This document shows, piece by piece, positions 11,436-27,921 of a stretch of 37,853 nt of DNA; within the stretch, counting starts at the first letter, position 1, and the number at the start of each line of letters is the position of its first letter. The stretch comes from Gammaproteobacteria bacterium (GTDB taxonomy: Bacteria > Pseudomonadota > Gammaproteobacteria > Acidiferrobacterales > UBA6901), in contig JANOTM010000151.1 of assembly GCA_031416355.1 (NCBI GenBank), positions 1-37,853 on the forward strand. The letters are read 5' to 3'. Under the pieces are notes generated by a model. That model had not been told where the DNA came from. It saw nothing but the letters and a program-made list of their open reading frames with translations, and did no database searches. The position numbers and the translations under genes were made by a program.

Positions 11436-11909
11436 ATGACCAACATTGATTACCTCATCCCCAAGAACAAGCGTGCAGTGTGGACGCCAGAACTGGAAAT
11501 ACTCGAAACCTATGCCGACGCCATGATCGAAATTCCTTTACTAGGCTGGGTAGCGGCCGGACAACCGGTGGATCTTAACGACGATCACGGCCGGGTGTCG
11601 GTACCCGCCAACATGGTGCGCAAGAACACCTATGCCTTGCGCGTGCGCGGCCACTCCATGATCGACGACAATATTCAGGACGGCGACATCATCGTCATCG
11701 AAAAGCGCGAAACCGCCCACAACGGCCAGTCGGTCGTGGCCATGATCAACGGCGAGCAGGTTACCCTAAAGAAATTTTATGTAGAAGCCGATGGCATACG
11801 CCTGCAGCCGGCCAATCCCGGCATGGCGCCGATACGATTGAAGAACGAAGAAGTACAGATACTGGGGATAGTGACGGGTGTCATTCGCATGGCGGAAGAA
11901 CCGCGTTAG
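11436..11909 (+). CDS. S24 peptidase, LexA/UmuD-like, without a DNA-binding domain
   Basis: 157 aa with a LexA-type cleavage region IPLLGWVAAGQP, a catalytic Ser context VRGHSMID and a Lys context VTLKKF. Only about 39 aa precede the Ala-Gly site, and ispF ends 31 nt upstream, so there is no room for a winged HTH. Confidence 0.75.
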   Translation: MTNIDYLIPKNKRAVWTPELEILETYADAMIEIPLLGWVAAGQPVDLNDDHGRVSVPANMVRKNTYALRVRGHSMIDDNIQDGDIIVIEKRETAHNGQSVVAMINGEQVTLKKFYVEADGIRLQPANPGMAPIRLKNEEVQILGIVTGVIRMAEEPR

Positions 11910-13449: not shown

Positions 13450-14130
13450 ATGAGAACGCCTACAAGAAGCACCACGTTTCTGAGTCGTTTTGCAGCAGTT
13501 GGGGGCGCGTCTCTGCTTATAGCAAGCGCGCAGGCGGGGACCATCGTCGGGTCGCCGCACGATTTTTCCACGACGGGCTGGGCTGGCGGGCAGATCTGCG
13601 TGGCCTGCCACACGCCCCATAACGCCAACGTCACGGTGACCGATGCGCCGCTGTGGAATCACGCCCTGACGACCAAGACATATGCGCTTTATACCTCCCC
13701 CACGTTAAATGCCGCCACCGGCCAACCGGGCGGGGCATCCAAACTTTGCTTGTCGTGCCATGACGGCACGGTCGCTATCGACAGCTTCGGCGGCACCACC
13801 GGGACTAACCTGATGGGCGGCAGCGATGCCGTCGGCCGCGGGCCAGCCGATCTGACCGACGATCACCCGATCTCCATCACCTATAACACGGCGTTGGCGA
13901 CGGCGGATGGCGGTCTGTACGACCCGGCTACCCGGACCGTCGCGATCGGTTCCGGCACGCAGACGCGGACCGGTACGGTGGCGGCCACCTTGCTGTACAA
14001 TGGGCAGCTGCAGTGCGCGTCGTGCCACGACGTGCACAACACCTTCACCGTCGGCGGCATCAACGGCGAGCCGCTCCTCAAGGTCAGCAAGGCCGGCAGC
14101 GCTTTGTGTCTAACTTGTCACAATAAATAA
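13450..14130 (+). CDS. tetrahaem c-type cytochrome, exported
   Basis: 226 aa with signal peptide ...LLIASAQA and four CXXCH motifs (CVACH, CLSCH, CASCH, CLTCH). SPHDFS...CxxCHTPHN resembles the doubled-CXXCH domain type. A strong SD AAGGAGG lies 5 nt before the ATG. Confidence 0.9.
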   Translation: MRTPTRSTTFLSRFAAVGGASLLIASAQAGTIVGSPHDFSTTGWAGGQICVACHTPHNANVTVTDAPLWNHALTTKTYALYTSPTLNAATGQPGGASKLCLSCHDGTVAIDSFGGTTGTNLMGGSDAVGRGPADLTDDHPISITYNTALATADGGLYDPATRTVAIGSGTQTRTGTVAATLLYNGQLQCASCHDVHNTFTVGGINGEPLLKVSKAGSALCLTCHNK

Positions 14131-14153
14131 AACCAAAGGCTCGACCCCAAAAC

Positions 14154-14172
14154 CCCTGGCGCAACGCCAGGG
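14154..14172 (+). other. intercistronic GC hairpin (ccctggcg-caa-cgccaggg)
   Basis: 8-bp perfect stem with a 3-nt loop, 24 nt after the tetrahaem gene stop. No U-tract follows. Confidence 0.5.
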
Positions 14173-14218
14173 CTGGGGCAGAAATGGGGTAAAATCCGCG
14201 AGCGGAAAGGAGGTCGGT

Positions 14219-15373
14219 ATGCCGTTGCGGCTGGGGTGGTTTTACGCCCGTATCAGAATGAACGCCATCGCACCCGCTGTGGTATGTGCAGGCGCCGTGG
14301 CGATCGCCCTGTTGACCGGTTGCGCCACCACCCCTATAACCCGGAGCGCGGCCGCACCGGTCTTCTATCCGCCACTGCCTAACCCACCGCGCATTCAATA
14401 TCTCACGACGTTCTCGTCCGCGCGCGATTTGGCGCACAAACCCGGCGCATTCGCCGAGTTCATCTTCGGCAAGGAGACCGCCGACACCCAGGGCGTTAAA
14501 AAGCCCTACGGTGTAGCGTTGCACGACGGCAAGATCTACGTGGTCGACACACGTGGGCCGGGTTATGCGATCTTTGATCTCGTCAACCGGCGCTTCGAGA
14601 CCGTATCCGGCAGCGGCGGTGGCAAGATGCAAAAGCCGATCAACATTACCGTCGATCACGACGGCACCAAATACGTCACCGACACCGGTCGCGATCAGGT
14701 GCTGGTCTACGACCGCGATAACCGCTACCTGCGCGCCTACGGCGTGCAGGGGCAGTTCAAGCCGGGCGACGTGGCGATCGCGGGCGACCGGCTTTACATC
14801 ACTGACCTCAGTCACCACGCGATCGAGGTGCTCGATAAAGACTCGGGCAAGACGTTATTCAAGTTCGGCGCGACCGGTTCGAAGGACGGCGAGCTGTATC
14901 ACCCGACCAATCTCGCGCTCGCCGGTGGATATCTATATGTCGCCGACACCGGCAATTACCGTATTCAGAAATATACACTCGACGGTACGTTCGTGCGCAG
15001 CTACGGGCAGATTGGCAGCGGCCTCGGTCAGTTCGCGCGCCCGAAGGGGGTGGCGCTCGATGCGGACGGGCGCATGTACGTCGTCGATGCCGCGTTCGAG
15101 AACATCCAGGTGTTCGACGCCGATGGCATGCTGCTGCTCTTCTTCGGCGAGCCGGGCGACCGTCCGGAAAACATCAATCTGCCGACCAAGGTGACGATCG
15201 ATTCGGCGCACGTCGCGTTGTTCCAGCGCTACGCCGACCCGAAGTTCAAGCTCGAATACGTGATCCTGGTGGCGAGTCAGTTCGGAGCCAACAAAGTGAA
15301 CGCCTTCGGCATCGGCAAGATGGACGACATGGACTACGCCATCACGGAGCGGACCGAGCGAGAGCAGCGATGA
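14219..15373 (+). CDS. NHL-repeat beta-propeller lipoprotein (paralog 1)
   Basis: 384 aa. AGGAGG lies 5 nt before ATG 14219, and ATG 14258 is an alternative start. It has a lipobox ALLTGC. Repeated NHL-type blades include YGVALHDGKIYVVDT, LYHPTNLALAGGYLYVADTGNYRIQKY and FARPKGVALDADGRMYVVDAAFENIQVFD. Confidence 0.85.
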   Translation: MPLRLGWFYARIRMNAIAPAVVCAGAVAIALLTGCATTPITRSAAAPVFYPPLPNPPRIQYLTTFSSARDLAHKPGAFAEFIFGKETADTQGVKKPYGVALHDGKIYVVDTRGPGYAIFDLVNRRFETVSGSGGGKMQKPINITVDHDGTKYVTDTGRDQVLVYDRDNRYLRAYGVQGQFKPGDVAIAGDRLYITDLSHHAIEVLDKDSGKTLFKFGATGSKDGELYHPTNLALAGGYLYVADTGNYRIQKYTLDGTFVRSYGQIGSGLGQFARPKGVALDADGRMYVVDAAFENIQVFDADGMLLLFFGEPGDRPENINLPTKVTIDSAHVALFQRYADPKFKLEYVILVASQFGANKVNAFGIGKMDDMDYAITERTEREQR

Positions 15374-15385
15374 CACCGGTGCATA

Positions 15386-17443
15386 ATGCTGCAGACGCGT
15401 GGTAACCGAAATGATGCAATGCAAGGAAAATCATGTTCAGGCACAGCATCGATCCGATGCGGCTGGCGCGGGCCGGGGCTGATCGCCCTGGCCGCCTGCA
15501 TGCCCGCATTCGCGCTCGGCCAGGAGCCGGAGATCGCACCGTTTCGCCTCACCAGTATCGAGGGCTATATGGCGCTGCGCTACGCCGAGGATGAGCAGCG
15601 GCTCGGTTCGACCGGCGGCGTCGCGCGCGAGCGGCGTTCGACCTGGGAAGAGGAGGTGTTCGTGCAGACTCGAAGCTACATCTACCACCCGAACTTTCTT
15701 AAGTTCGACCTGGGGGCCGGTCCGCTGTTTGCGCAAAATCGTTTCGAATCCGACGCGGGTAGCAGCCGTTCCAACGACGGGCTCTACAACCTGACCGCGC
15801 GCGCGAGTTTTCTGGAGCAGAAGCCATATCCGTTCGCGCTGTACTACGAGCACCTGAATCCGTCGGTCTCCGTCGGCCTCACCCAGACTTTTCGCCAGGA
15901 AAACGACAAGTACGGTTTCAACCTTGCGTTGCGCCAGCCGCTGACGCCGATACTATTGACACTCGATGCCTTCCGGCTGACGACCAAAGGTGAAGGTTTT
16001 GATATCATCGTGGACGACACTATCGATCAGGCGACGCTGCGGGCGCATCAGTCGTTCGGCGCGGGCAACTACAACCAGCTCATGTTCCAGACCACGCACC
16101 AGGAATCCTTGAGCGGCAGCCCGAATCTACCGATCCAGCCAACCACCACCGATACCGATTTGTGGAATCTCGACTCGCGCGCCACGTTCGGCGCGCAGCG
16201 GCAGTTTCTGCTCACGAACATCGTTTCCTACACCACGCAGAACTACACCCTCGGGAGCGAGACGCCAGCACGGCGCGACCTGCGCGTCAGCCCGGACCTG
16301 CGCTGGGAACATTCGCCGGCGCTGTATTCATTCTATCGGGTCAATCTACTGCAGAGCGAAGAACGCCAGCTCGAGACACTGCACCGTTCCGCGGTGGCGG
16401 GTCTGGCGCATCGCCCCGACGACCGCTGGTTCACCACCACCGACGTGCATGCCGAACGCTTCGATGCTACCGGGTTCACGCAGCACACCGATGGCGTCGC
16501 CGGGTCCATCAGCTACCGTCGCCCGATCCCCGTCGGCAGCCTGCAGCTGAGCTACGCCGCGCGCTACGACCTAAAGGACCGCGACGCCCCAGCGGTGCAG
16601 GTCGCGATCTTCGGCGAGCGCATCACGCTTGCCGACGCGATCGCGGTAACGCTCGCCAACGACTTCATCGTGCCCGGGACCATCGTCGTGAGGAATCTTA
16701 CGCGCACGCAAATCTACGCCGAAGGTCTGGACTACCGCGTCATCGCGATCGGCGCCAAGACTCAAATTCAGCGATTGGTGGCGGGCAATATCCTCGACGG
16801 CCAAGAGGTGCTCGTGGACTACGCCTACCAGACCGGCGGTTCGGTTGCGTACGCGACGTTCGACCAGAATCTCCAGACGAACCTTGCGTTGTTTCGCTAC
16901 TACAATTTGTTTGCACGTTACCGCGACGTCGCGCAGGACGTGCGCTCGGGTGTGCCGACACTACCGCTCAATCCCGGGCGCAACACGTTATACGGCGCGC
17001 GCGCCGACGTACCGGTGTGGCGCGAGTGGATGGTGGGCGGCGAGGTGACGCGCGAGGAACAGAGCGAGGATATCTCACCCTACATGCGGCGCAGCATCGA
17101 CACTTACGTACAGTTACTGCTGCCGTATGCAAGCACGTTGCGCGTCGCCGGCCGGCGCGTCGTGGCTGACAACCTCAACTCGCCCGAGGACGTGGACCTG
17201 CGCGGATACAGCGTTCTGCTGCGCGCGCGCCCGGGTTTTCGTGCGACACTGGTCGCCGAAGCGAACGTCGACAAGGACATCGGCGGCACGATACCACGCG
17301 AGTTCCAGTCGCGCGTCCTGGCGGCGGAATGGCGCTACCGGCAGTTGAGTTTGCGTGCCGAGGCGCGTTCCGCGCGCGAGGTGCAGGGCGGGTTCGAGCG
17401 CGAACGCAGGTTGATCCGCGTGCAGGCGCGGCGGGATTTTTGA
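15386..17443 (+). CDS. predicted outer-membrane beta-barrel porin
   Basis: 685 aa with signal peptide (GLIALAACMPAFALG). It shows a long run of alternating hydrophobic/polar strands rich in Y, R, N, G and T, and has no CXXCH. The C-terminus ...VQARRDF ends in Phe as in OMP barrels. The start is uncertain (15386 or 15419). Confidence 0.65.
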   Translation: MLQTRGNRNDAMQGKSCSGTASIRCGWRGPGLIALAACMPAFALGQEPEIAPFRLTSIEGYMALRYAEDEQRLGSTGGVARERRSTWEEEVFVQTRSYIYHPNFLKFDLGAGPLFAQNRFESDAGSSRSNDGLYNLTARASFLEQKPYPFALYYEHLNPSVSVGLTQTFRQENDKYGFNLALRQPLTPILLTLDAFRLTTKGEGFDIIVDDTIDQATLRAHQSFGAGNYNQLMFQTTHQESLSGSPNLPIQPTTTDTDLWNLDSRATFGAQRQFLLTNIVSYTTQNYTLGSETPARRDLRVSPDLRWEHSPALYSFYRVNLLQSEERQLETLHRSAVAGLAHRPDDRWFTTTDVHAERFDATGFTQHTDGVAGSISYRRPIPVGSLQLSYAARYDLKDRDAPAVQVAIFGERITLADAIAVTLANDFIVPGTIVVRNLTRTQIYAEGLDYRVIAIGAKTQIQRLVAGNILDGQEVLVDYAYQTGGSVAYATFDQNLQTNLALFRYYNLFARYRDVAQDVRSGVPTLPLNPGRNTLYGARADVPVWREWMVGGEVTREEQSEDISPYMRRSIDTYVQLLLPYASTLRVAGRRVVADNLNSPEDVDLRGYSVLLRARPGFRATLVAEANVDKDIGGTIPREFQSRVLAAEWRYRQLSLRAEARSAREVQGGFERERRLIRVQARRDF

Positions 17444-17445
17444 CG

Positions 17446-18555
17446 ATGCGCGCCTTCGCGATGCCGTTGCCGGAGATGCGGAACCGCCGGGTTCCGGGTC
17501 GCGCGCCGCGGCGGACGGACAACAAGGTATCGCATCGCGTTACATCGATCATCCTGGCTGCCGCGCTCGCGGCAGTCGCCTGCGCCCCTTTGTCGCGGAC
17601 TGCGGCACTCCCCGACGCACCGCGCGCATGGCCCGAGCCGCCGGCCCCGGCGCGGATCGTCTACGTGCGCAGCTTCTCGCGCCCGCAGGATCTAGGCATT
17701 ACCAAGGGTTTGTTTCAGCGACTCGGCGAATTTTTTGTCGGGCGCGACGATGTACGTCTGGTCCGCCCCATGGCGGTCGTTGCGTGGGGCGACGACCTCG
17801 TATTCGTCGCCGATCCGGGCGCCAAGGGTGTGCACCGCTTCGATCTCGCCAAGGGCCGACACCATCTCATCCGCCGCGAAGGCGGTGCGCCGCTGCCCTC
17901 GCCGGTCGGTCTGGCGCTGGGCGTGCACGGAGAGGCCTATGTTACCGACTCCGCGCTCGGTCAGGTATTCGTCATTCGGCCCGGCGCGAAAGCGGCGGCG
18001 GCGCTCGCGCTCGCGGCCACGCTCGCGCAACCGACCGGTATTGCGCTCGATCCGGCGACCGGACGGCTCTACGTGGTCGATACCGCGAACCATGAGGTAA
18101 AGATATTTACGCCGGACGGCGCGTTGCACGCTACGTTCGGCCGACGCGGCACGGGCGACGGCGAGTTCAACTATCCGACAATGATCTGGCGCGACGTCGG
18201 CGGGCGGCTGTTCGTCGCCGATTCGCTCAACTTCCGCACCCAGATGTTCGACGCGGCCGGGAGACCGCTCGGCAAATTCGGCAAGCTCGGCGACGCGACC
18301 GGCGACCTGGCACGCCCGAAGGGCGTCGCCACCGACCGCTTCGGGCACGTGTACGTGGTCGATTCGATGTTTCATGCGCTGCAAGTTTTCGATACCGAAG
18401 GCCGACTCCTGCTCCACATCGGCAGCCAGGGGCGCGCGCCGGGCGAGTTCTGGCTGCCCACCGGCGTGTATGTCGGCGCGCAGGACAAAATCTACGTCGC
18501 CGATACACACAACCGGCGGGTGCAGGTGTTTCGCTACGTCGGGAGCGAGCCGTGA
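17446..18555 (+). CDS. NHL-repeat beta-propeller (lipo)protein (paralog 2)
   Basis: ATG 17446 lies 2 nt after the porin stop. The N-terminus ...ILAAALAAVAC has a lipobox-like Cys. PAPARIVYVRSF parallels PNPPRIQYLTTF of paralog 1. NHL blades include FNYPTMIWRDVGGRLFVADSLNFRTQMFD and LARPKGVATDRFGHVYVVDSMFHALQVFD. Confidence 0.85.
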   Translation: MRAFAMPLPEMRNRRVPGRAPRRTDNKVSHRVTSIILAAALAAVACAPLSRTAALPDAPRAWPEPPAPARIVYVRSFSRPQDLGITKGLFQRLGEFFVGRDDVRLVRPMAVVAWGDDLVFVADPGAKGVHRFDLAKGRHHLIRREGGAPLPSPVGLALGVHGEAYVTDSALGQVFVIRPGAKAAAALALAATLAQPTGIALDPATGRLYVVDTANHEVKIFTPDGALHATFGRRGTGDGEFNYPTMIWRDVGGRLFVADSLNFRTQMFDAAGRPLGKFGKLGDATGDLARPKGVATDRFGHVYVVDSMFHALQVFDTEGRLLLHIGSQGRAPGEFWLPTGVYVGAQDKIYVADTHNRRVQVFRYVGSEP

Positions 18556-20246
18556 ATCGGTACGCGCTGACGTGTGTCTCGTTGATTCTCGGTCTCGGCG
18601 TTCTTGCGGCCGCTGCCGACGTCGCGACGACGAAACACAATCTTTCCGTCAGCGGACCAGGGGCGATCAAGGCGACGGATGAATCGCAGATATGTGTCTT
18701 CTGCCATACGCCGCACAACGCACGTCCGATCTCGCCGCTATGGAACCGCCGCGATTCCGGCAGCACCTATGTTCCGTATACGAGCTCGACCGCGGTCGCT
18801 GTGCCGGGCCAACCGACGGGTTCTTCGGTACTCTGTCTGTCGTGCCACGACGGCACTATAGCGCTCGGTGAGGTACTGAGCCGCGCGACGTCGATCCCGA
18901 TGGCGGGCGGGACCACCACCTTGCCGACCGGTGCCGGGCGCCTCGGCACCGATTTGTCCGACGATCATCCGGTCTCGTTTGTGTACTCCGCCGGGCTCGC
19001 GAGCCAACGCGGCGAGCTCGTGAACCCGGCGACGCTCACCGGCGCCATCAAGTTGGATGCATCCGGGCAGCTCCAATGCACGAGCTGCCACAACGCGCAC
19101 GACGACATCTTTGGAAAATTTCTGGTGATGTCGAATCGTGGTTCGGGGTTGTGCCAGACTTGTCACACCAAGAATTTCTGGTCGCAGACCGCGCACCGGG
19201 CGTCGACCGCGATCTGGAACGGTGTCGGGCCGAATCCCTGGCCGCACACGCCATGGACCAATGTCGCGGACAACGCGTGTGAGAACTGCCATCGCCCGCA
19301 CATAGCCGGTGGCCGGCAGAGCCTGCTCAACTATCAAGTCGAGGAAACCAATTGCAGCGTGTGCCACGGCGGCAACGTCGCGCAGAAAAATGTCGCGGGC
19401 GAGTTCAACAAGAGCTCGAACCATCCCATCGCCGACACGACCGGCACGCACAGCCCATCGGAGCCGGCTGTGGTGAGCGCACGTCACGTCGAGTGCGCGG
19501 ACTGCCATAACCCGCACGCGGCGCGCGCCGCCGGGGCCGGCACGCCGCCCGGCTCGCTCGCGGGCGTGCGTGGTGTCGGCATCACCGGGGCCGAGGTGAA
19601 CCCGGTGACGCATGAATATCAACTATGTTTCCGCTGCCACGCCGACAGTCCCAACAAACCTCCGCCGCGCACCACGCGCCAGATCGCGCAGACCAACGTG
19701 CGTCTCGAGTTCGCCACGACCAATCCGTCGTACCATCCGGTCGCCGGCCCCGGCCGCAATGCGAACGTGCCGAGCTTGATGGCGCCGCTCACCACTGCGA
19801 GCACCATCGGTTGCGGCGACTGCCACAACAACAACGCCGCGCCGAAGGCCGGCGGCGTCGGACCGAACGGTCCGCACGGCTCGATCTACGCGCCGTTATT
19901 GGTGCGGCAATACGTGACCGTCGACAACTCCGCCGAGAGCAGCTCCGCCTATGCGCTGTGCTACTCCTGCCATAGTCGCGACAGCGTTCTCGGCGACCAG
20001 AGTTTCCGTGAACACCGCAAGCATATCGTCGGGGAACGCACGCCGTGCAACGTCTGCCACGATCCGCACGGCATCAGCGGCAGCCAGGGCAACAGCGAGA
20101 ACAACACCAAGCTCATCAACTTCGATACCTCGGTGGTCCGCCCCAGCTCCTCCGGGTTGCTGCGATTCGAGTCGTCCGGGACGTTCACCGGGCGCTGCTA
20201 TCTCATGTGCCATGGTGAGAATCACGACCCCAAACCATCGAGGTAG
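18552..20246 (+). CDS. undecahaem c-type cytochrome (11 CXXCH plus 1 CX3CH), exported
   Basis: 564 aa with a GTG start overlapping the upstream stop by 4 nt, GGGAG about 7 nt upstream, and signal peptide SLILGLGVLAAAA. I counted 11 CXXCH plus CYLMCH. The first roughly 205 aa are colinear with the 226-aa tetrahaem protein. Confidence 0.9.
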   Translation: MNRYALTCVSLILGLGVLAAAADVATTKHNLSVSGPGAIKATDESQICVFCHTPHNARPISPLWNRRDSGSTYVPYTSSTAVAVPGQPTGSSVLCLSCHDGTIALGEVLSRATSIPMAGGTTTLPTGAGRLGTDLSDDHPVSFVYSAGLASQRGELVNPATLTGAIKLDASGQLQCTSCHNAHDDIFGKFLVMSNRGSGLCQTCHTKNFWSQTAHRASTAIWNGVGPNPWPHTPWTNVADNACENCHRPHIAGGRQSLLNYQVEETNCSVCHGGNVAQKNVAGEFNKSSNHPIADTTGTHSPSEPAVVSARHVECADCHNPHAARAAGAGTPPGSLAGVRGVGITGAEVNPVTHEYQLCFRCHADSPNKPPPRTTRQIAQTNVRLEFATTNPSYHPVAGPGRNANVPSLMAPLTTASTIGCGDCHNNNAAPKAGGVGPNGPHGSIYAPLLVRQYVTVDNSAESSSAYALCYSCHSRDSVLGDQSFREHRKHIVGERTPCNVCHDPHGISGSQGNSENNTKLINFDTSVVRPSSSGLLRFESSGTFTGRCYLMCHGENHDPKPSR

Positions 20247-20285
20247 AGTAGTGGGAGGCGAGACTAGATATGGGCGCCTCGTTGT

Positions 20286-20299
20286 TTGATCTGGATCAA
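20286..20299. promoter_or_regulatory. perfect FNR/ANR/FixK-type box TTGAT-CTGG-ATCAA inside the cluster
   Basis: Exact consensus match in the spacer between the 11-haem and 8-haem genes. It is preceded by a 6-bp hairpin (gaggcg/cgcctc, 20255-20280) and GTTGTTT. Confidence 0.55.
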
Positions 20300-20328
20300 A
20301 GGCAGTGCATGAGGATAGGTGCAAGGTA

Positions 20329-21366
20329 ATGGTATGCGGACCGGCTCGACGGTACGGGCGTGCGGGCGGCGCGGGTGCGCGCGGGACGATCGCCTGGGTC
20401 GCCGGCGTTGCGATGCTGTTGGCGGCGGGTACGGGCCTGCCGGCGCAGGAGAAGCGGGCGATGCCGAATGTCGATGAAAAACAACTGCTCGATCAGCCGC
20501 AGCGCATTCCCGCGCTGCTCGCGCAGCAGGCGTTGCGCGTCGAGCAGGTGCCGAACCCGCACTGGCGACGCGACGCGTGCCAGGCGTGTCACAGCGGACC
20601 GGCGACCCGGGCGGCGGTCAAGCTGCGCGACGTGGACGTGAACCGCTCGTGCAACACCTGCCATGACGCGGTATGGCCGCATAGTTACATTCACCCGGCC
20701 GGCATGAAGCCGGCGGAGGACATGCAGCGGCGCATGTCCGAGACGTTTCGCCAGTCGCTCAGGCGCGGCGCCGGCACGGTTACCTGCGCCACTTGCCACG
20801 ATGTGCCGATGCAATGCCTGCCGGAGCGCGTGCGCGAACGCGCGCTCAATCCGCTGTTCCTTCGCGGCGGGCCGTACAAGGCGCGCACCGGCATCTGTTA
20901 CCAGTGCCACGATCCAAAACAGTACGAGCGCCTGAACCCGCACGACCAGGTTGCCGACGACGGCGCGATGCGCGAGAACCTATGCCTCGTATGTCACCGC
21001 GACACCCAGGGACTGAAGGACATGCGCGCGAGCGCCGGCCTGCGCTTCGTTACCGACGACCTGTCGGCGCTTTGCACCGGTTGTCACAAGTCGATTCCGC
21101 ATCCGGGCGGCGTTTCATTCTCGGGCAAAGCCGGCCCGAGTCATTTTGTGGCGCCGTCGAAGGCAGTGGCGGCACGCATGAAGCGGGCGGAACGCCTATA
21201 CGAGATTTCCTTGCCCCTAGACCCCGGGACCGGCAAGGTGTACTGCGCCACCTGTCACAACCCGCACGAACGCGGCGTAGTGCTGCGCACGGCTGCGGCC
21301 AAGGGCGCCGACAGCAAGGATCGATTGCGTACCTCCGACATCTGTGCGATGTGTCATGAAAAATAG
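20329..21366 (+). CDS. octahaem c-type cytochrome, exported
   Basis: The ORF opens at GTG 20305 and the first ATG is at 20329. The signal region is GTIAWVAGVAMLLAAGTG. Eight CXXCH motifs are present (CQACH, CNTCH, CATCH, CYQCH, CLVCH, CTGCH, CATCH, CAMCH). Confidence 0.88.
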   Translation: MVCGPARRYGRAGGAGARGTIAWVAGVAMLLAAGTGLPAQEKRAMPNVDEKQLLDQPQRIPALLAQQALRVEQVPNPHWRRDACQACHSGPATRAAVKLRDVDVNRSCNTCHDAVWPHSYIHPAGMKPAEDMQRRMSETFRQSLRRGAGTVTCATCHDVPMQCLPERVRERALNPLFLRGGPYKARTGICYQCHDPKQYERLNPHDQVADDGAMRENLCLVCHRDTQGLKDMRASAGLRFVTDDLSALCTGCHKSIPHPGGVSFSGKAGPSHFVAPSKAVAARMKRAERLYEISLPLDPGTGKVYCATCHNPHERGVVLRTAAAKGADSKDRLRTSDICAMCHEK

Positions 21367-22477
21367 GCAATCCAACGTAGGGCGGCGCGCGCTTTTCGGA
21401 CTGGCGCTGTTCCTGCTCGCGAGTGCCGGCGCGCGCGCGTTCGAAGACAGCGAAGGTTGTCTGGTATGCCACAAGTACCCGCGCATGGGGCGCATCACCG
21501 AGGACGGGGTGCTGCGGTCCTATTACATCCAGCCGCAGGTCTACGGCAAGACGGTGCACCGTAACGTACCGTGCCGCGACTGCCACACCGAGATCAAGGA
21601 GCTGCCACATAAGCCGGTGAAGGTCGGCGTCACCTGCAACACCGAATGCCATTCGATCAAGAACCCGGCGACCGGCAAACCGTTCAGCCACAAGCCGATC
21701 TACGACGTCTACCGCGCGAGCATCCACGGGCGCGACAAACTCGCCACCGGTCTCGACGCGGACAAGCCGTATTGCGTGACATGTCACACCAATCCGCTGT
21801 ACAACCCGGCGGAAAACGAACCACCGAAACAGATCGTCGCGCGCTGCGTGATTTGCCATGAGGACAAGGACTTCGTCACGCGTTGGTACAATCATACCAG
21901 CCGGCGCATTCGCGAGGTGCGGCGTACACCGGGCGAGATCGTGGCGTTGTGTTCCACCTGTCACGACGACCGGAAGATGGTCGCGCGCCACGTGCAGGCG
22001 GCGAAGGCCGATGGGCGCGCGCTCGGGCGCAAGTTTGCCTATGCCGTCGATTCGTATTACGAAAGCTTTCACGGCAAGATGACCCGCTATGGGTTTACCG
22101 CGGCCGCCAACTGTCTCGATTGCCACGCCGATGCCGCCAACTATTTCAAGGGCGTGCACGAGATCCGCCCGTCGCGCGATCCGGCCTCGCCGGTGCACGC
22201 CGACCAGCGCCTGCGGACGTGCCAGCGCTGCCACACGTCTGCCGATGAGAACTACGCGCGGCTCGATCCGCACCCCACCAGCCTGCGCGCGGACAATCCG
22301 TTCCGCTACTACGCCGAGTGGATTTACAACGTCATCGGCGCCGTCGTGATCACCGGCCTCGTCGGTCTAGCGCTGTTCGAGACCTACAGGCGGCGGCGTG
22401 ACGGTGTGGCGTGGCTGCTGCGCCACGGTTCCTCGTGGCGGCGCAAAAGCCGGCGCGGGCGGGACCGGATTAAGTGA
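21356..22477 (+). CDS. heptahaem c-type cytochrome (7 CXXCH plus 1 CX3CH) with C-terminal membrane anchor
   Basis: ATG 21356 (MKNRQSNVGRRALFGLALFLLASAGARA) overlaps the upstream gene by 11 nt. Seven CXXCH plus CNTECH are present. The C-terminal TM WIYNVIGAVVITGLVGLALF is followed by RRRRD. Confidence 0.88.
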   Translation: MKNRQSNVGRRALFGLALFLLASAGARAFEDSEGCLVCHKYPRMGRITEDGVLRSYYIQPQVYGKTVHRNVPCRDCHTEIKELPHKPVKVGVTCNTECHSIKNPATGKPFSHKPIYDVYRASIHGRDKLATGLDADKPYCVTCHTNPLYNPAENEPPKQIVARCVICHEDKDFVTRWYNHTSRRIREVRRTPGEIVALCSTCHDDRKMVARHVQAAKADGRALGRKFAYAVDSYYESFHGKMTRYGFTAAANCLDCHADAANYFKGVHEIRPSRDPASPVHADQRLRTCQRCHTSADENYARLDPHPTSLRADNPFRYYAEWIYNVIGAVVITGLVGLALFETYRRRRDGVAWLLRHGSSWRRKSRRGRDRIK

Positions 22478-22519
22478 GCAGGCCAGAATGGCCCCAATGA
22501 AAACGAAGGTGACGACACG

Positions 22520-23449
22520 ATGAAATTATCCAAGCCCGCGCGCGATGTCCTCGAAACCTCGCTGCGTCAGAATCGAATCGACGCGCGCGAGCGCAAGGAA
22601 ATCGAGGCGCTCATCGCGCTTCTGCCCGCGGACCGCGTGCTGTTCTACAAGAACGTGGTGTCGAATCCGCTCGGCGATCTGTACCGCTATTCTATCCACA
22701 TCCGCATCCAGCACATGCTGATCTTCGTCACGTTCCTCACGCTCGCCTTCACCGGCCTGCCGATCCACTTCTTCGACTCGTTCTGGGCCGGGCCGCTCAA
22801 CGCACTGCTCGGCGGTGTGAGCGTCACCCGCATCATTCACCGTACCATCGCCGTCATCATGATTCTGGCGATGGCCTACCACATCCTCACCCTCACGCTC
22901 GGAACGCTCGCGCGCCTCAAGGCCGGCACCTTCGATCTCCGCCGCACCATCGTGCCGCTGCCGAAGGATATCCGCGACTTCAAGGAGGACCTCTTGTATT
23001 TCTCGGGCAAGCGCGGCCAGCGTCCGGAGATGGATAAATTCAATTACAAGCAGAAGATCCACTACTTCGCCGCCGGTTTCGGCAACACCGTGATGGTGGT
23101 GTCGGGCTCGACCTTCCTGTTTCCCGAATTGTGGGCGGCGATGCTGCCGGCCGGCATGGTGGCGCATTGGCAGGAGCTGATGCGCCTGTCGCACCCGCAC
23201 GAGGCGTTGTTGGCGCTGCTCGTGATCGCCTTCTGGCATTGGTACAATGTGCACCTCGCGCCCGGACGCTTCCCAATGCAATGGACGTTCCTCACCGGCA
23301 AGATCACGCGCGAGCACCAAATCGAGGAACATTTCCTGGAGTATCTGCGCAACCTGGTGGAACAACCGCAGGAGCGGCAGGCGCTGCTGGGCATGCTGGA
23401 GAGCCGCGAACTGGCGGGCGGGCCCCCCGCCGACGAGGGCGTACCATGA
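22520..23449 (+). CDS. membrane b-type cytochrome, FdnI/HydC/PhsC-like (Ni_hydr_CYTB type)
   Basis: 309 aa with four predicted TM helices. Conserved His residues are placed as in dihaem cytochrome b subunits (RIQHML, IIHRTIAVIMILAMAYH, KIHYF, HPHEALLALLVIAFWHWYNVH). SD AAGGTG is upstream. Confidence 0.75.
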   Translation: MKLSKPARDVLETSLRQNRIDARERKEIEALIALLPADRVLFYKNVVSNPLGDLYRYSIHIRIQHMLIFVTFLTLAFTGLPIHFFDSFWAGPLNALLGGVSVTRIIHRTIAVIMILAMAYHILTLTLGTLARLKAGTFDLRRTIVPLPKDIRDFKEDLLYFSGKRGQRPEMDKFNYKQKIHYFAAGFGNTVMVVSGSTFLFPELWAAMLPAGMVAHWQELMRLSHPHEALLALLVIAFWHWYNVHLAPGRFPMQWTFLTGKITREHQIEEHFLEYLRNLVEQPQERQALLGMLESRELAGGPPADEGVP

Positions 23450-23571
23450 TCAAGCCCATGACACCATGGCAGAAGGCGATCGCCTACGGGGCGCTGGTGG
23501 TCATGCTCATCTGGACCGCGCTCGGCATGCTCGCGGTCTGGCTCATGCTCACCGATCCACACGGGCACTGA
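23446..23571 (+). CDS. 41-aa single-TM peptide, translationally coupled to cytochrome b
   Basis: My own reading: the ATG overlaps the cytochrome b stop as ATGA. The sequence is MIKPMTPWQKAIAYGALVVMLIWTALGMLAVWLMLTDPHGH, with one clear TM helix. It fills the gap up to the next SD. Confidence 0.5.
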   Translation: MIKPMTPWQKAIAYGALVVMLIWTALGMLAVWLMLTDPHGH

Positions 23572-23583
23572 AGGGAGACGCGC

Positions 23584-24660
23584 ATGCACGGCAACGAAAC
23601 GCTCGGCGTACTGGTAATCGTGACGGTGCTGCTATTTTTCGGCCTCGGCATTGCGATGATGGTCATCATGGACCACAAGGCGCGGTTGCCCGGGGGCTTC
23701 ACCGAGAATCCGTTCAGCGTCGTCGGCATGCATCGCGACCACCCGGTAATCGCGTTCCTGACCGCGGCCATCCTGCTTAGCGTCATCGCAGCGCTGCTGC
23801 TGGCGCTGTTCGGTGCGTTGGCCGGGACGTTCGGGTTATTCCAGGCGCCGGCGCCGCCGGCGCTGCTCAGCCGCCTGAGCGAGGAGCGCACCGCCGAGCG
23901 GCTGCGCCATTTTCACAATATGCCAGCGCAGGACCTGACGGCGCTGGGCAAAAAAAACGTGTGCTTCTTCTGCCACGGCGACTATCCGCATTCGAAGGAG
24001 CCGATGGTGCGCACGCTGCTCAACATGCATACGCAGTTCATCGGCTGCATGACGTGTCACGCCAGCGAGCGCAAGTTGCCGGAAGATCGATTGCGGCTCG
24101 CGTGGCTTAATTACTCGGGACTGGCGGTGACGGGCCGGCCGTACGGCATCGACATCGATCCCGCCACCGGCATGCTGATCGAGACGGACGATTTGTATTC
24201 CAAGATCGTCGCCTACGCCCAAACAGGGACGACCGAGACACTGCTTGAAATCACCGCCGATGACCCGCAAGCGCGGGAATTCGTGGCGCTACAGAGTAAG
24301 CTTTCTGACCATGACCGCGAGGCGGTCAAAAAAACCTTCCACAAGCAGGTGGGCGCCAACGGCCGGTCTTGCGGCCGCTGCCATGCGAACGAGGCCAAGA
24401 GCTACGTGCCGTTCCGCGCACTCGGTTTTTCCGAGCGGCGAGTTCGCGAGCTGACTCAACTCAACATCATCGGACTCGTGCAAAACTATCGGGAGTTCTA
24501 TCTTCCGAGCTTGATGAAATCGGGCCATGCGCCGTCGGAAGAGGCCGGCGCACCGGCGCCGGCAGGCCCCGCGGCCGAGGACGTCCTGCGCAACGACCCG
24601 CGCGGGTGGTGGAAGCGAACCTATGACGCACCGACTGAACCAGCGAAAGACAAGCCATAA
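23584..24660 (+). CDS. membrane-anchored trihaem c-type cytochrome
   Basis: 358 aa. SD AAGGGAG lies 6 nt before the ATG. There are two N-terminal TM helices and three CXXCH motifs (CFFCH, CMTCH, CGRCH). Confidence 0.85.
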   Translation: MHGNETLGVLVIVTVLLFFGLGIAMMVIMDHKARLPGGFTENPFSVVGMHRDHPVIAFLTAAILLSVIAALLLALFGALAGTFGLFQAPAPPALLSRLSEERTAERLRHFHNMPAQDLTALGKKNVCFFCHGDYPHSKEPMVRTLLNMHTQFIGCMTCHASERKLPEDRLRLAWLNYSGLAVTGRPYGIDIDPATGMLIETDDLYSKIVAYAQTGTTETLLEITADDPQAREFVALQSKLSDHDREAVKKTFHKQVGANGRSCGRCHANEAKSYVPFRALGFSERRVRELTQLNIIGLVQNYREFYLPSLMKSGHAPSEEAGAPAPAGPAAEDVLRNDPRGWWKRTYDAPTEPAKDKP

Positions 24661-25582
24661 TGGCACGTGTGCCGCGCTCGCGTGCCTGCTGGCGGCGACG
24701 TTGGGTCACGCGGCCTTCGCCGCCCCGCCCATTCCTACGCGCGACATCCGGCACGTGCATAACCTCACGACCGCGGGCGGCGTGCCGCTGTCGCTGCCAA
24801 CCGACGTCGCCATCGGCCGCGACGGCCGAATTTACGTAGTCGACAGCGGCAATCACCGGCTGGTCGCGTTCGACCGCGGCGGGCGCTTTCTTTTCAGTGT
24901 CGGCCAGCCGGGCAAAGGACGTGGACAGTTCAAGGACCCGGTCGGCATCGGCACCGGGTCGGACGGCGCAGTGTACGTCGCCGACAAAGGCAATCAGCGC
25001 ATTCAGGTATTTGAACCAGACGGTGCGTTGCGTCATGTCTTCCCCGTAGCGTACGCCGGCAAGCCGGTGTCGCCGGTCGACGTCGCTGTCGATGCCGCCG
25101 GCAAAACGCTTTACGTCACCGGCAACAGCAACCACCGTGTCATGGCCTATACCCCGGGTGGACGGTTTCTGCGTCAGTGGGGCGGAGAGGGCGTGAATCG
25201 CGGCGAATTCCGTTATCCCGCGACGGTGGCGGTGAACGCCGAGGGCTCGGTGTTCGTGGTGGATGTGTTCAACACGCGGGTGCAGGTATTTGATCGTGGC
25301 GGGCGCGTTTATGCGGTGGGTGAGTGGGGCGTACTGCCCGGCCAGTTGTTCCGGCCCAAGGGCGTCGCGCTCGATAGGAACGGACGGATTTACGTCAGCG
25401 ACAGCTACCTCGATGTGGTCCAGGTGTTCGATAACGAATACCGGTTCCTGGCCGTGCTAGGGCGCGGCGGCAGACCGCAGCGCTTGACCTCGCCGGCCGG
25501 TATCACGATCGATGGTAGTGACCGGTTGTATATCTCCGAGATGCTGAAACACCAGGTCTCAGTGTACGAGTTGCGGCCATGA
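24623..25582 (+). CDS. NHL-repeat beta-propeller protein (paralog 3), exported
   Basis: The ORF opens at 24527. The signal peptide begins at ATG 24623 (MTHRLNQRKTSHNGTCAALACLLAATLGHAAFA). NHL blades include LPTDVAIGRDGRIYVVDSGNHRLVAFD, FRYPATVAVNAEGSVFVVDVFNTRVQVFD and LFRPKGVALDRNGRIYVSDSYLDVVQVFD. Confidence 0.85.
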   Translation: MTHRLNQRKTSHNGTCAALACLLAATLGHAAFAAPPIPTRDIRHVHNLTTAGGVPLSLPTDVAIGRDGRIYVVDSGNHRLVAFDRGGRFLFSVGQPGKGRGQFKDPVGIGTGSDGAVYVADKGNQRIQVFEPDGALRHVFPVAYAGKPVSPVDVAVDAAGKTLYVTGNSNHRVMAYTPGGRFLRQWGGEGVNRGEFRYPATVAVNAEGSVFVVDVFNTRVQVFDRGGRVYAVGEWGVLPGQLFRPKGVALDRNGRIYVSDSYLDVVQVFDNEYRFLAVLGRGGRPQRLTSPAGITIDGSDRLYISEMLKHQVSVYELRP

Positions 25583-27921
25583 ACGGCATGCGCCGAGGTG
25601 CGCGGTTTATTGCCTTGCTGATCGCGTCCGCGCCGCTCGCCACGCACGCGGCGAGCGATATCGCGGAGAACCGCGAGTGCGCCACCTGCCACATCATGTC
25701 ACTCGCCGATTTCAAGCGCGACGACGTGACGCCGTTGGTTGCCTACGATCCCAGGCCTATGGTCGAAACCGGCAGGCAGGACGTGTCCTCGACCGAGCGC
25801 ATGTGTTTCTCCTGCCACGACGGGTTCGTGCTCGACTCGCGTTCGGTCTGGCGCAACAAACACCACGAGCATCCGGTCGGGGTGCGGCCATCGAGCAAGG
25901 TGAGGATTCCAACGGCGCGCGGCAAGGTCGTGTTCCCGCTGAACGACGACGGCAAGCTGTACTGCGGCACCTGTCACACCGCGCATGGTGTGGATTGGGC
26001 GCAGACCGAATCGCCGGTGTTCATGCGCGTCAAGAACGTCGATTCGAGCTTATGTCTTGCATGTCATCTCGACCGGGGGACCGGACCGGCCGCGGGCAAC
26101 CATCCGGTGTTTGGCAAGCTCGACGCATGGCCGGCGGCGCTGCTCGCGGCCGGCGGCAAGCCGGGCCGCCACGACGACGTGACCTGCGAGTCTTGCCATC
26201 GCACACACGGCGGTGCCCAGGACAAGATGCTGGTACTGGCGAATACGGATTCGCAGTTGTGCGGCGCGTGCCACGCCGACAAGTACCGGATTCGCAAGAC
26301 CAAGCACGATCTGTCGGTTATGGCACCCGAGGCGCGCAACCGCAAGGGCCACACCGCCGTCGAGTCTGGGCCGTGCGGCGTGTGCCACGTGGCGCACGGC
26401 GGCAATGGACCGGACTGGTGGGCGCGAGATATCACGAACCCCGAGTCCACCGGCGGGCGCTGCCTGAGCTGCCATCAGCCCGAGGGGCTCGCTAAGAAAA
26501 AAACCATCGGTGAACACACGCATCCGATCAACGTTCCGGTGGCCAATGCCGGCATCACCGCCACGATCAAGGGCTGGGTCAGCCGCTTCTCGCTTCTCAA
26601 CAAAGATGATCCGCTGCTGCCGTTGCCGCTGTACGACAAGCGCGGTCTGCACACGCGTACCGGCGGCAACGTCGGATGCGGTACCTGCCACGATCCGCAC
26701 GTGTGGTCCCCGGCGGAAGCGGCCTCCGGCGATCCGCGCAAGATCGAAGGCGGCGCGCGCGACAGCTTTCTGCGCATGACGGCCGATGGCGACGGAAAAC
26801 TGTGTGCAAACTGCCATGTGGACAAGGGCGCGGTGGCGCTGTCCAAACACAATCCCACCGTCATGGCGGCCGCAAAAATCCGCTCGCAGGAAAAAAAGGC
26901 ACCAAAGATTCCGGATGCAGGACGCACAGCAGACGCCGGCGTATGCGGCGCATGCCACGCGCCGCACAATGCCAAGGCATCCAATCTCTGGGCACGCGAC
27001 CGCGGACCGGGCGCGGGCTTTACCGAGGCGCTCTGCAACGATTGCCACCGTGACGGCGGCGAGGCTGGCAACAAGCGCGTTGGCGCGCACAGCCATCCGC
27101 TCAACGTGAAGCTTGCGCCAGGCATGACGTCGCGGCTGCCGCTGTACACCGCCGCCGGCCGTAGTCAAACGGCCGAGGCCAAAGTGGATTGCGCCACCTG
27201 TCACGACCCGCACCAATGGACCCCGGCGGATGCGGCGAGCCGCGCGGGCACCCGGGCCGACGTGGACGGCGATGCGCGCGACAGTTTTCTGCGCCTCACG
27301 GCCAGCGGCCGCGCGGATTTGTGCGTCGAGTGTCATCAGGCACAGCGCTTCGTGCGCGGCAGCGATCACGATCTCTCAGTCACCGCCCCGCAAGACACCA
27401 ATGCCAAAGCACAGACCGTCGTGCAATCGGGGGTCTGCGGCCAGTGCCATGTGCCGCACAATGCGCCGCACGCACAAGGCCTGTGGGCGCGCGCCCCGGG
27501 GGCCGCGCCGGAAGAGAACGAGAGGCTCTGCCGCAGTTGCCACGCACAGGGCAAAACCGCCGCCAGCAAAGTGCCATCCGAGAGCCGTCATCCCCTCAAC
27601 ATCACTGTGTGGTCCGACCGGGTGCGTGCCGGCTACCGCCCGGGCGCGAGCACCGGCCTACCGGTTTTTAACCGCGATGGGAGACGCGACATCACCGGCA
27701 TTATCACGTGCGTGAGCTGTCATGATCCCCACCAGTGGAGCGCGCGCCACGCCACGGAAGGTCCGGGCAGGAATGTCGAAGGCGACGTCGGCAACAGCTT
27801 CCTGCGGCTGGAGCAGAGCGCCGAATTCGTGTGCGCCGACTGCCACGGCCTCGATGCGTTGTTCCGCTACAAATATTTTCACGGCAAGTCGTCACGCAAG
27901 GAGTATCCGCTCTATCGTTGA
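25579..27921 (+). CDS. 18-haem c-type cytochrome, exported, internally repetitive
   Basis: 780 aa with an ATGA overlap with the upstream gene and signal peptide FIALLIASAPLATHAA. I counted 18 CXXCH motifs. Three clear tandem tetrahaem modules of about 175 aa are present, plus a degenerate N-terminal copy. Confidence 0.9.
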   Translation: MNGMRRGARFIALLIASAPLATHAASDIAENRECATCHIMSLADFKRDDVTPLVAYDPRPMVETGRQDVSSTERMCFSCHDGFVLDSRSVWRNKHHEHPVGVRPSSKVRIPTARGKVVFPLNDDGKLYCGTCHTAHGVDWAQTESPVFMRVKNVDSSLCLACHLDRGTGPAAGNHPVFGKLDAWPAALLAAGGKPGRHDDVTCESCHRTHGGAQDKMLVLANTDSQLCGACHADKYRIRKTKHDLSVMAPEARNRKGHTAVESGPCGVCHVAHGGNGPDWWARDITNPESTGGRCLSCHQPEGLAKKKTIGEHTHPINVPVANAGITATIKGWVSRFSLLNKDDPLLPLPLYDKRGLHTRTGGNVGCGTCHDPHVWSPAEAASGDPRKIEGGARDSFLRMTADGDGKLCANCHVDKGAVALSKHNPTVMAAAKIRSQEKKAPKIPDAGRTADAGVCGACHAPHNAKASNLWARDRGPGAGFTEALCNDCHRDGGEAGNKRVGAHSHPLNVKLAPGMTSRLPLYTAAGRSQTAEAKVDCATCHDPHQWTPADAASRAGTRADVDGDARDSFLRLTASGRADLCVECHQAQRFVRGSDHDLSVTAPQDTNAKAQTVVQSGVCGQCHVPHNAPHAQGLWARAPGAAPEENERLCRSCHAQGKTAASKVPSESRHPLNITVWSDRVRAGYRPGASTGLPVFNRDGRRDITGIITCVSCHDPHQWSARHATEGPGRNVEGDVGNSFLRLEQSAEFVCADCHGLDALFRYKYFHGKSSRKEYPLYR

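Follow-up and report, generated by a model that had tools for sequence, protein, structure and literature searches.

What does a large outer-membrane beta-barrel do when its gene lies between the genes of two haem-free beta-propeller lipoproteins, in the midst of genes for multihaem cytochromes? The question is raised by a contig of a gammaproteobacterium (Gammaproteobacteria bacterium; Acidiferrobacterales; UBA6901; assembly GCA_031416355.1, contig JANOTM010000151.1, positions 1-37,853, forward strand), which was analysed over its whole length of 37,853 nucleotides (nt) and is referred to below as the window. Positions 13450-27921 of its plus strand hold 11 tightly packed genes, all those discussed below being on this strand unless stated otherwise. 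An earlier note on this DNA had described the barrel flanked by NHL-type propeller lipoproteins and had taken the MtrCAB electron conduit as the reference system. We consider it rather probable that the segment 13450-21366 encodes instead an OmcE-type extracellular cytochrome module, related to the Uet system, in which the barrel serves as a pore for export, anchoring or electrons and the two NHL lipoproteins serve as paired adaptors.

Resemblance to the omcE nanowire cluster

The minimal omcE cluster consists of OmcE, two beta-propeller lipoproteins, a large beta-barrel and two multihaem cytochromes, and OmcE homologs with such neighbours have been found in five phyla, including Pseudomonadota (bioRxiv 10.1101/2025.10.22.684050). 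The segment 13450-21366 has this very composition, with an OmcE homolog (the 4-haem protein, 13450-14130), a first propeller lipoprotein (NHL1, 14219-15373), the barrel (15386-17443), a second propeller lipoprotein (NHL2, 17446-18555), an 11-haem cytochrome (18552-20246) and an 8-haem cytochrome (20305-21366, eight CxxCH motifs). The same parts list is found in the omcE cluster of Desulfuromonadia, represented by OmcE GSU0618 of Geobacter sulfurreducens and OmcE of Desulfuromonas soudanensis WTL, whereas the host here is a gammaproteobacterium. The arrangement is a gene-cluster type already described, and the window adds a new bacterial example of it.

When the 4-haem protein, which has 226 amino acids (aa), an ordinary signal peptide and four CxxCH motifs, was compared with the PDB using phmmer, it matched chain 7tfs_A (E 1.7e-21 over residues 23-226, the full length) and chain 9yuq_N (E 1.2e-18). 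Entry 7TFS is the OmcE filament of G. sulfurreducens (PMC12954529); entry 9yuq contains 16 identical chains and, from the account in the OmcE preprint, we infer that it is the D. soudanensis OmcE bundle. The window's protein retains each CxxCH motif and each distal histidine of OmcE, four of either kind, and these motifs and histidines (H37, H57, H139 and H196) were invariant in 121 aligned sequences, including the N-terminal module of the 11-haem protein. The 4-haem family is very large.

Over 211 residues, the N-terminus of the 11-haem protein shares 41% identity with the 4-haem protein, and a profile of the 11-haem protein matched 7tfs_A (E 1.3e-43, residues 11-209). On these two grounds, the protein can be described as an OmcE-like 4-haem module (approximately residues 19-207) to which an extension with seven more haems has been added. 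Because it carries an OmcE-like head, it is a concrete candidate for the base of a filament; by sequence, it may represent a base or anchor subunit, and the 4-haem protein may represent a filament subunit or a cap. In this respect the window differs from the published operons, since the OmcE preprint found no OmcE-like tip or stopper candidate in OmcE operons. Neither cytochrome has a lipobox. The haem counts of 4 and 11 were nearly invariant, three complete 11-haem orthologs being different (10, 10 and 12 motifs).

Given the OmcE homolog and the OmcE-like module of the 11-haem protein, the system matches the omcE nanowire cluster and is not a variant of MtrCAB. The earlier note had missed both the homolog at 13450-14130 and the module that opens the 11-haem protein, and its choice of MtrCAB as reference was wrong, as both the composition and the OmcE-like cytochromes fit the omcE cluster and no membership of the MtrA, MtrB or MtrC families was found with Pfam or NCBIfam. 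In MtrCAB of Shewanella (PDB 6R2Q), as in the window, a large outer-membrane barrel is encoded together with multihaem cytochromes, and both barrels are plausibly routes for electrons across the outer membrane. However, MtrB has 26 strands, whereas the window's barrel has about 30 and, by Pfam, no sequence homology to it; the decahaem MtrA and the lipoprotein cytochrome MtrC are both missing, the score against the MtrA/DmsE family (TIGR03508) being 44 bits, far below the cut-off of 192; the lipid anchors are instead on haem-free propellers; and the cytochromes are OmcE-like, unlike those of MtrCAB.

A lone tetrahaem gene, with a product 64% identical to the OmcE-like protein of the window, was observed in L025:10001-10663 (GCA_006243245.1, VAPM010421002.1, 85.5 kb). 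The other genes of the contig look phage-like (Phage_DsbA, HNH, RNA ligase, PrkA/SpoVR and ribosomal protein S21), and it may represent a phage-carried OmcE-like cytochrome.

Conservation of the gene order

A genome scan, a metagenome scan and nine look-ups of gene context yielded 106 loci. Of these, 40 had the order 4-haem, NHL, barrel, NHL, 11-haem intact, among them clades in which the barrel is only 20-35% identical to that of the window, and nearly all truncated contigs were consistent with it. Overall, the module recurs beside barrels with no more than 20-40% identity to that of the window. Recurrence of this order in dozens of independent loci shows that the arrangement is not due to chance. 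In 79 of 84 loci, the next gene upstream of the 11-haem gene is an NHL gene. The stop of NHL2 overlaps the start of the 11-haem gene by 4 nt in the window, and this overlap, together with the near-zero spacing between barrel and NHL2, was present in every called locus looked at, including those of distant clades. Five loci are cyclic permutations (barrel-NHL-11h-4h-NHL or NHL-11h-4h-NHL-barrel), and all five keep the 4-haem/NHL and NHL/11-haem pairs. The carriers include lineages named after oxidisers (Acidiferrobacteraceae, Thiobacillus and Leptothrix). One locus, L018, was considered as a barrel and NHL pair without cytochromes, but it is a small contig scaffolded between gaps of 100 N and is not an exception.

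The gaps reported previously, 12 nt between NHL1 and the barrel and 2 nt between the barrel and NHL2, are correct if the first in-frame ATGs are used; alternative ATGs would widen them to 45 nt (barrel start at 15419) and up to 32 nt (NHL2 start at 17476). The database gene call P0001 places the barrel start at 15500, which is unlikely because the signal peptide would be lost.

Two variations on the arrangement were seen. In L078, L106 and L035, there are tandem NHL/11-haem duplicates (NHL-11h-NHL-11h) or a second 11-haem gene, and the NHL/11-haem pair appears to be the unit of duplication. Distant variants of the module encode, between NHL1 and the barrel, a lipoprotein cytochrome of 5 to 7 haems whose N-terminus carries the motif FFFDGVPP (L039:6068-6763, L058:5922-6752, L070:5584-6735, L083:5858-6535 and L093:5459-6694), and thus some relatives do have a lipid-anchored cytochrome beside the pore.

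The barrel

The view that the 685-aa middle protein is a large outer-membrane beta-barrel is supported. An AlphaFold2 model built from a 29-sequence alignment was wholly beta, with a predicted local distance difference test score (pLDDT) of 86.8 and a predicted template modelling score (pTM) of 0.70. A signal peptide is present, and the C-terminus reads RRDF, its phenylalanine being nearly invariant across homologs; a C-terminal phenylalanine is the usual mark of proteins inserted by the beta-barrel assembly machinery (BAM). A Foldseek search of the PDB with the model gave MtrB as the top match (6r2q_B, E 1.4e-7, template modelling (TM) score 0.42-0.44), followed by the FimD and PapC ushers, the Deinococcus SDBC barrel and LptD, all of which are large outer-membrane barrels. 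At the sequence level, no match was found to Pfam or to any PDB chain, and the MtrB family was not matched in Pfam or NCBIfam. An NCBIfam "phage tail tube" hit on the barrel insert described below (E 0.0014; 18 bits against a cut-off of 60) was treated as a chance match. The family is large, with 2412 cluster representatives (50% clustering, E<=1e-3); the nearest named relatives, from Acidiferrobacteraceae, are 54% identical, and a plasmid search with the barrel gave no match.

We counted 30 long strands, 18 before and 12 after an insert, a count read from the secondary-structure string of one AlphaFold2 model and not from closure at the level of coordinates. The earlier note had placed the barrel in the size class of MtrB, a 26-strand sheath; MtrB is the best fold match, but the model has about 30 strands. 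From the usual barrel geometry, 30 strands would correspond to an estimated C-alpha diameter of about 55 A, in agreement with the pore of approximately 5 nm published for the 28-strand model of UetC (Uet literature). The insert, a conserved small beta element of 57 residues (barrel residues 416-472, window 16631-16801), separates strands 18 and 19 and, in the model, is on the side of the barrel termini; its conservation is 0.62 vs 0.58 for the strands, and it could be a plug or docking domain. Conserved turns on one face of the barrel were also considered, but odd and even turns were not different overall (Mann-Whitney p = 1.0), and a pattern noticed post hoc, in which conservation favours even turns in the N-terminal half of the barrel and odd turns in its C-terminal half, is not relied on.

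The NHL lipoproteins

Both proteins that flank the barrel are indeed NHL propellers (Pfam NHL, E 5.8e-17 for NHL1 and 2e-27 for NHL2), each of six blades, and both lack CxxCH motifs, as does a third paralog encoded downstream (NHL3). Their lipoboxes, LLTGC in NHL1 (Cys35) and AAVAC in NHL2 (Cys46), are conserved in orthologs, the cysteine being kept in 17 of 18 NHL1 and 16 of 16 NHL2 orthologs inspected, and most NHL proteins of the wider superfamily have a lipobox. In a wider tally of lipoboxes, the residue after the cysteine was mostly alanine and never aspartate. The Lol sorting rule of Escherichia coli relates this residue to outer-membrane sorting, and by that rule the absence of aspartate suggests that NHL1 and NHL2 are sorted to the outer membrane. 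The tether between the cysteine and the first conserved motif has 11-18 residues in NHL1 and 14-21 residues in NHL2.

The post-lipobox motif said to be common to NHL1 and NHL2 is conserved in both families as [FW][YW]PxxPxx[PA]R[IV]x[YFH]. In an AlphaFold2 model of NHL1 made from a 3-sequence alignment of the window's own paralogs (pLDDT 79, pTM 0.81), five blades are complete with four strands each, and the sixth is atypical, with only three C-terminal strands; there is also a C-terminal extension. The missing fourth strand of the sixth blade would be supplied most simply by the N-terminal strand RIQYLTTF (mature residues 24-31), in which case half of the motif is the strand that closes the propeller. 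In the model, therefore, the motif is at least partly a structural closure strand rather than a signal specialised for docking. Disorder is predicted for the proline-rich half, [FW][YW]PxxPxxP, which is still a candidate contact site. Foldseek gave canonical six-bladed NHL domains (TRIM, Thin and Brat) as the best matches of NHL1, with target-normalised TM scores of 0.82-0.84.

A proposed mechanism and its alternatives

We infer a complex, its topology and filament formation along the following lines. Sec would carry the 4-haem and 11-haem proteins into the periplasm, where haem would be attached to them. The barrel of about 30 strands would form an outer-membrane pore that passes or holds the OmcE-like modules and through which electrons cross the membrane. 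The 11-haem protein would act as the base, with its 7-haem extension reaching a periplasmic relay made up of the 8-haem protein and then the 7-haem/cytochrome b pair encoded downstream, read as the quinone link, and with its OmcE-like head accepting OmcE-like subunits by the histidine-to-haem contact known from OmcE filaments. NHL1 and NHL2, attached to the outer membrane through short linkers (11-21 residues) with a lipid anchor, would each serve one OmcE-like module, NHL1 as adaptor for the 4-haem protein and NHL2 for the 11-haem protein, and would hold or deliver these modules at the barrel, much as chaperones serve an usher. The earlier proposal that the lipoproteins are docking scaffolds agrees with this in part, as they are haem-free and each NHL gene adjoins a cytochrome gene, but the 18-haem protein and NHL3, to which the note had also referred, are only optional.

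Several points weigh against the OmcE-type reading. The 4-haem family has a ninth conserved histidine, H71 (120 of 121 sequences), at a position occupied by arginine in the proven filament formers, OmcE of G. sulfurreducens and of D. soudanensis, and in the N-terminal module of the 11-haem protein; because of this residue, the 4-haem protein could be a non-polymerising cap and not a filament subunit. The match to the omcE cluster is drawn from the OmcE-like cytochromes and from composition, not from an alignment of the barrel or the NHL proteins, and the strand number comes, as stated, from a single model. Experimental support for members of this cluster type is limited to Geobacter and Desulfuromonas, where roles of the barrel and propellers are only proposed. 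About 12 distant NHL2-type proteins carry ordinary signal peptides and no lipobox, and NHL1 and NHL2 may be either periplasmic or surface-exposed.

The alternative that survives best is a static conduit similar to MtrCAB, with no filament, in which the 11-haem protein is threaded through the barrel, the 4-haem protein caps its head to complete a 15-haem wire, and the NHL lipoproteins clamp the soluble cytochromes to the membrane, replacing the lipid anchor of MtrC itself. This would account for MtrB being the best structural match of the barrel and for a lipobox being present in both NHL proteins and in neither cytochrome, and a conduit of this kind, with UetA and UetJ extracellular, has been proposed in the Uet literature. 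It would also make sense of the nine conserved histidines of the 4-haem family, which correspond to the requirement for a non-extending "stopper" (bioRxiv 10.1101/2025.10.22.684050). Nevertheless, two proven filament formers are homologous to the 4-haem protein over its full length, and it keeps the four distal histidines; we considered H71 as a stopper signature, but its position is variable in the wider superfamily (H, R, G, P or A), so that it may not be a haem ligand; and neither MtrA nor MtrC family membership was found, the DmsE-family match being far below its cut-off. We therefore regard the static conduit as possible but unlikely.

That the NHL lipoproteins are assembly factors for the barrel only, required for its folding or plugging but without contact with cytochromes once the system is mature, as BamB is in the BAM complex or LptE for LptD, seems improbable. 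BamB is itself a propeller lipoprotein, both NHL proteins are predicted outer-membrane lipoproteins encoded directly beside the barrel, and LptD/LptE complexes are among the structural matches of the barrel. In the permuted orders NE4NB and BNE4N, however, one NHL gene leaves the barrel yet still adjoins its cytochrome; the 4-nt overlap couples NHL2 to the 11-haem gene in all clades looked at; and NHL3, which is not a lipoprotein, is coupled in the same way to the 18-haem gene.

Very improbable, finally, is that the propellers are surface modules that bind or catalyse substrates (minerals, Fe(II), sulfur species or humics) to feed the cytochromes. In its favour, the Tenderiales preprint cites a link, probably by way of adhesion, between an NHL protein (Gmet_0556) and the reduction of Fe(III) oxides, and six-bladed propeller enzymes such as PAL appear among the lower structural matches (rank 28). 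Against it, the best matches are non-enzymatic NHL binding scaffolds (TRIM, Thin and Brat), the NHL proteins have no redox cofactor motif, and the cluster encodes no obvious factor for surface export of lipoproteins. Nor is the module tied to one substrate, since its carriers include both lineages whose names refer to iron or sulfur oxidation and, by published accounts, metal reducers.

How an OmcE nanowire exits and is attached to the cell was stated as an open question, with the barrel of the omcE cluster given a putative role in "secretion or anchor" (bioRxiv 10.1101/2025.10.22.684050). Building on the OmcE-type reading, we tentatively suggest one answer, with the odds against it: the head of the 11-haem base would nucleate or terminate a filament of 4-haem proteins by the histidine-to-haem contact of OmcE filaments, its 7-haem stalk would sit in the barrel, and the NHL proteins would act at the pore as subunit-specific chaperones, the whole being a chaperone-usher-like nanowire assembly line common to metal reducers with omcE clusters, to lineages whose names refer to iron or sulfur oxidation and to electron-uptake bacteria with Uet.

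Comparison with Uet and other systems

The Uet (undecahaem electron transfer) cluster, reported also in Gallionella and Leptothrix (Uet literature), comprises in Ca. Tenderia electrophaga the genes uetA-uetJ, which encode a tetrahaem cytochrome, a peptidyl-prolyl isomerase (PPIase), a barrel, three c7 trihaem cytochromes with a cupredoxin, two NHL proteins and an undecahaem cytochrome (Tenderiales preprint). By composition only, the window shares with it the tetrahaem cytochrome (UetA), the large barrel (UetC, predicted to have 28 strands), the two NHL proteins (UetH and UetI) and the 11-haem cytochrome (UetJ). Domains of the PPIase UetB, the c7 trihaems UetD, UetE and UetG and the cupredoxin UetF were not found in the window's cluster by Pfam and NCBIfam, but are present in the related metagenomic variants L091, L096 and L102. 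The order is also different, being 4-haem, PPIase, barrel, three trihaems and cupredoxin, NHL, NHL, 11-haem in Tenderia and 4-haem, NHL, barrel, NHL, 11-haem in the window. In L. cholodnii, UetC and UetJ are nine genes apart, which indicates that the compact module is an architecture distinct from Uet. No Tenderia-named protein was found among the matches to the barrel, the 4-haem protein or a distant-barrel profile.

Some metagenomic variants resemble the Uet cluster. Between the tetrahaem gene and the barrel, they have a SurA-like PPIase (L096) or c7 trihaems (L091, L102 and L104), and in all four loci the NHL and 11-haem proteins are related to those of the window, with 44-47% identity for the latter. 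The barrels of the three trihaem loci match the barrel profile (E 1e-22 to 1e-35); in L096, the open reading frame of 626 aa that takes the place of the barrel fails to match it. OmcE is matched by the tetrahaems of L096 (E 7e-30) and L102 (E 1.6e-12). These sequence relationships lead us to conclude that Uet-like and omcE-like clusters belong to one superfamily.

Two further systems show a similar logic. The osc (OmcS-companion) cluster of G. sulfurreducens also has dedicated genes beside the gene of a nanowire cytochrome (as summarised in PMC13194489). OmcS differs in having six haems and a sequence unrelated to OmcE, and the gene order of osc is not that of the window. In 2025, Shen and co-workers reportedly described an OscH with a prolyl isomerase, a channel-like OscEFG and a propeller-like OscD; if so, osc and the window would both combine a cytochrome, an outer-membrane channel and a propeller. 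In the chaperone-usher systems (FimD and PapC), which are analogous only, a large barrel is encoded with polymerising subunits that donate an N-terminal element, and growth of the fibre could be started or ended by variant subunits; our barrel has ushers among its structural matches, and the OmcE preprint also drew this analogy (bioRxiv 10.1101/2025.10.22.684050). Unlike those systems, the window has lipid-anchored propellers as accessories, its proteins have no sequence relationship to them, and neither the usher plug nor an Ig-like chaperone was found in it.

Downstream genes and flanking regions

The 8-haem gene follows the 11-haem gene in most gammaproteobacterial and distant loci. Its product, which weakly matches NrfB (2ozy_A, E 5.6e-6), probably corresponds to the second of the two multihaem cytochromes in the minimal omcE-type cluster and is likely to be a periplasmic relay. 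Unlike the omcE cluster, that of the window is fused to further genes, for cytochromes and NHL3, and genes for glycosylation do not come after it. A 7-haem cytochrome that has a membrane helix at its C-terminus (21344-22477) and a cytochrome b (b561/FdnI-like, with Pfam Ni_hydr_CYTB and TIGR01583-like matches; 22520-23449) form a pair conserved in L001, L002, L006, L019 and L020, which is probably the link to the quinone pool. We take this pair (21344-23449) to resemble CbcBA, an inner-membrane quinone oxidoreductase of Geobacter; if this is true, the window would encode a complete route from the quinone pool to the outside. A 3-haem protein with three CxxCH motifs and hydrophobic N-terminal segments (23584-24660) is conserved in the same loci, and inspection of its N-terminal sequence suggests that it is membrane-anchored.

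The third NHL paralog (NHL3, approximately 24623-25582, Pfam NHL E 9e-34) precedes the 18-haem gene (25579-27921), as had been noted, and its stop overlaps the start of that gene by 4 nt; it has an ordinary signal peptide and no lipobox, nor was a lipobox present in the N-termini of its orthologs. The counts of 11 haems (18552-20246) and 18 haems given earlier agree with the CxxCH motifs. Orthologs of the 18-haem protein follow NHL3 in L001, L002, L006 and L019, and all six genes downstream of the five-gene module are kept in these gammaproteobacterial loci. In the betaproteobacterial loci examined (L007, L010, L015 and L016), the five-gene module stands alone; the 7-haem/cytochrome b pair, the 3-haem protein, NHL3 and the 18-haem protein make up an optional extension.

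Scans of the window for Rfam families, tRNAs, promoters and terminators gave nothing exceeding chance level. Upstream of the cluster, 11436-11909 (+) encodes a 157-aa protein consisting of an S24 peptidase domain alone (LexA/UmuD-like), which is too short to include the LexA DNA-binding domain, and between this gene and the cytochrome cluster is a stretch of about 1.5 kb with no convincing gene. On the other side, convergent with the 18-haem gene, 27957-28892 (-) encodes a protein of 311 aa whose N-terminus resembles a lipobox (FMPSAC) and which contains a CycH Ig-like domain (Pfam, E 1.3e-37); this protein may by its sequence be an accessory of cytochrome maturation.

Implications

The barrel and the two propeller lipoproteins are a near-invariant partner of OmcE-like cytochromes, and the persistence with which each propeller gene stays with one OmcE-like module upon rearrangement is a testable lead. 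The Uet preprint makes no mention of OmcE, and the OmcE preprint (bioRxiv 10.1101/2025.10.22.684050) makes none of Uet; the assembly-line model, if true, would join these two literatures, whose two key preprints do not cite each other. Our results suggest a single machine that exists in different versions, the Uet system, for which a role in electron uptake has been proposed, and the OmcE nanowire system of metal reducers. In that case, genetic findings from the tractable Geobacter could be applied to the uncultured bacteria that carry Uet-like clusters.

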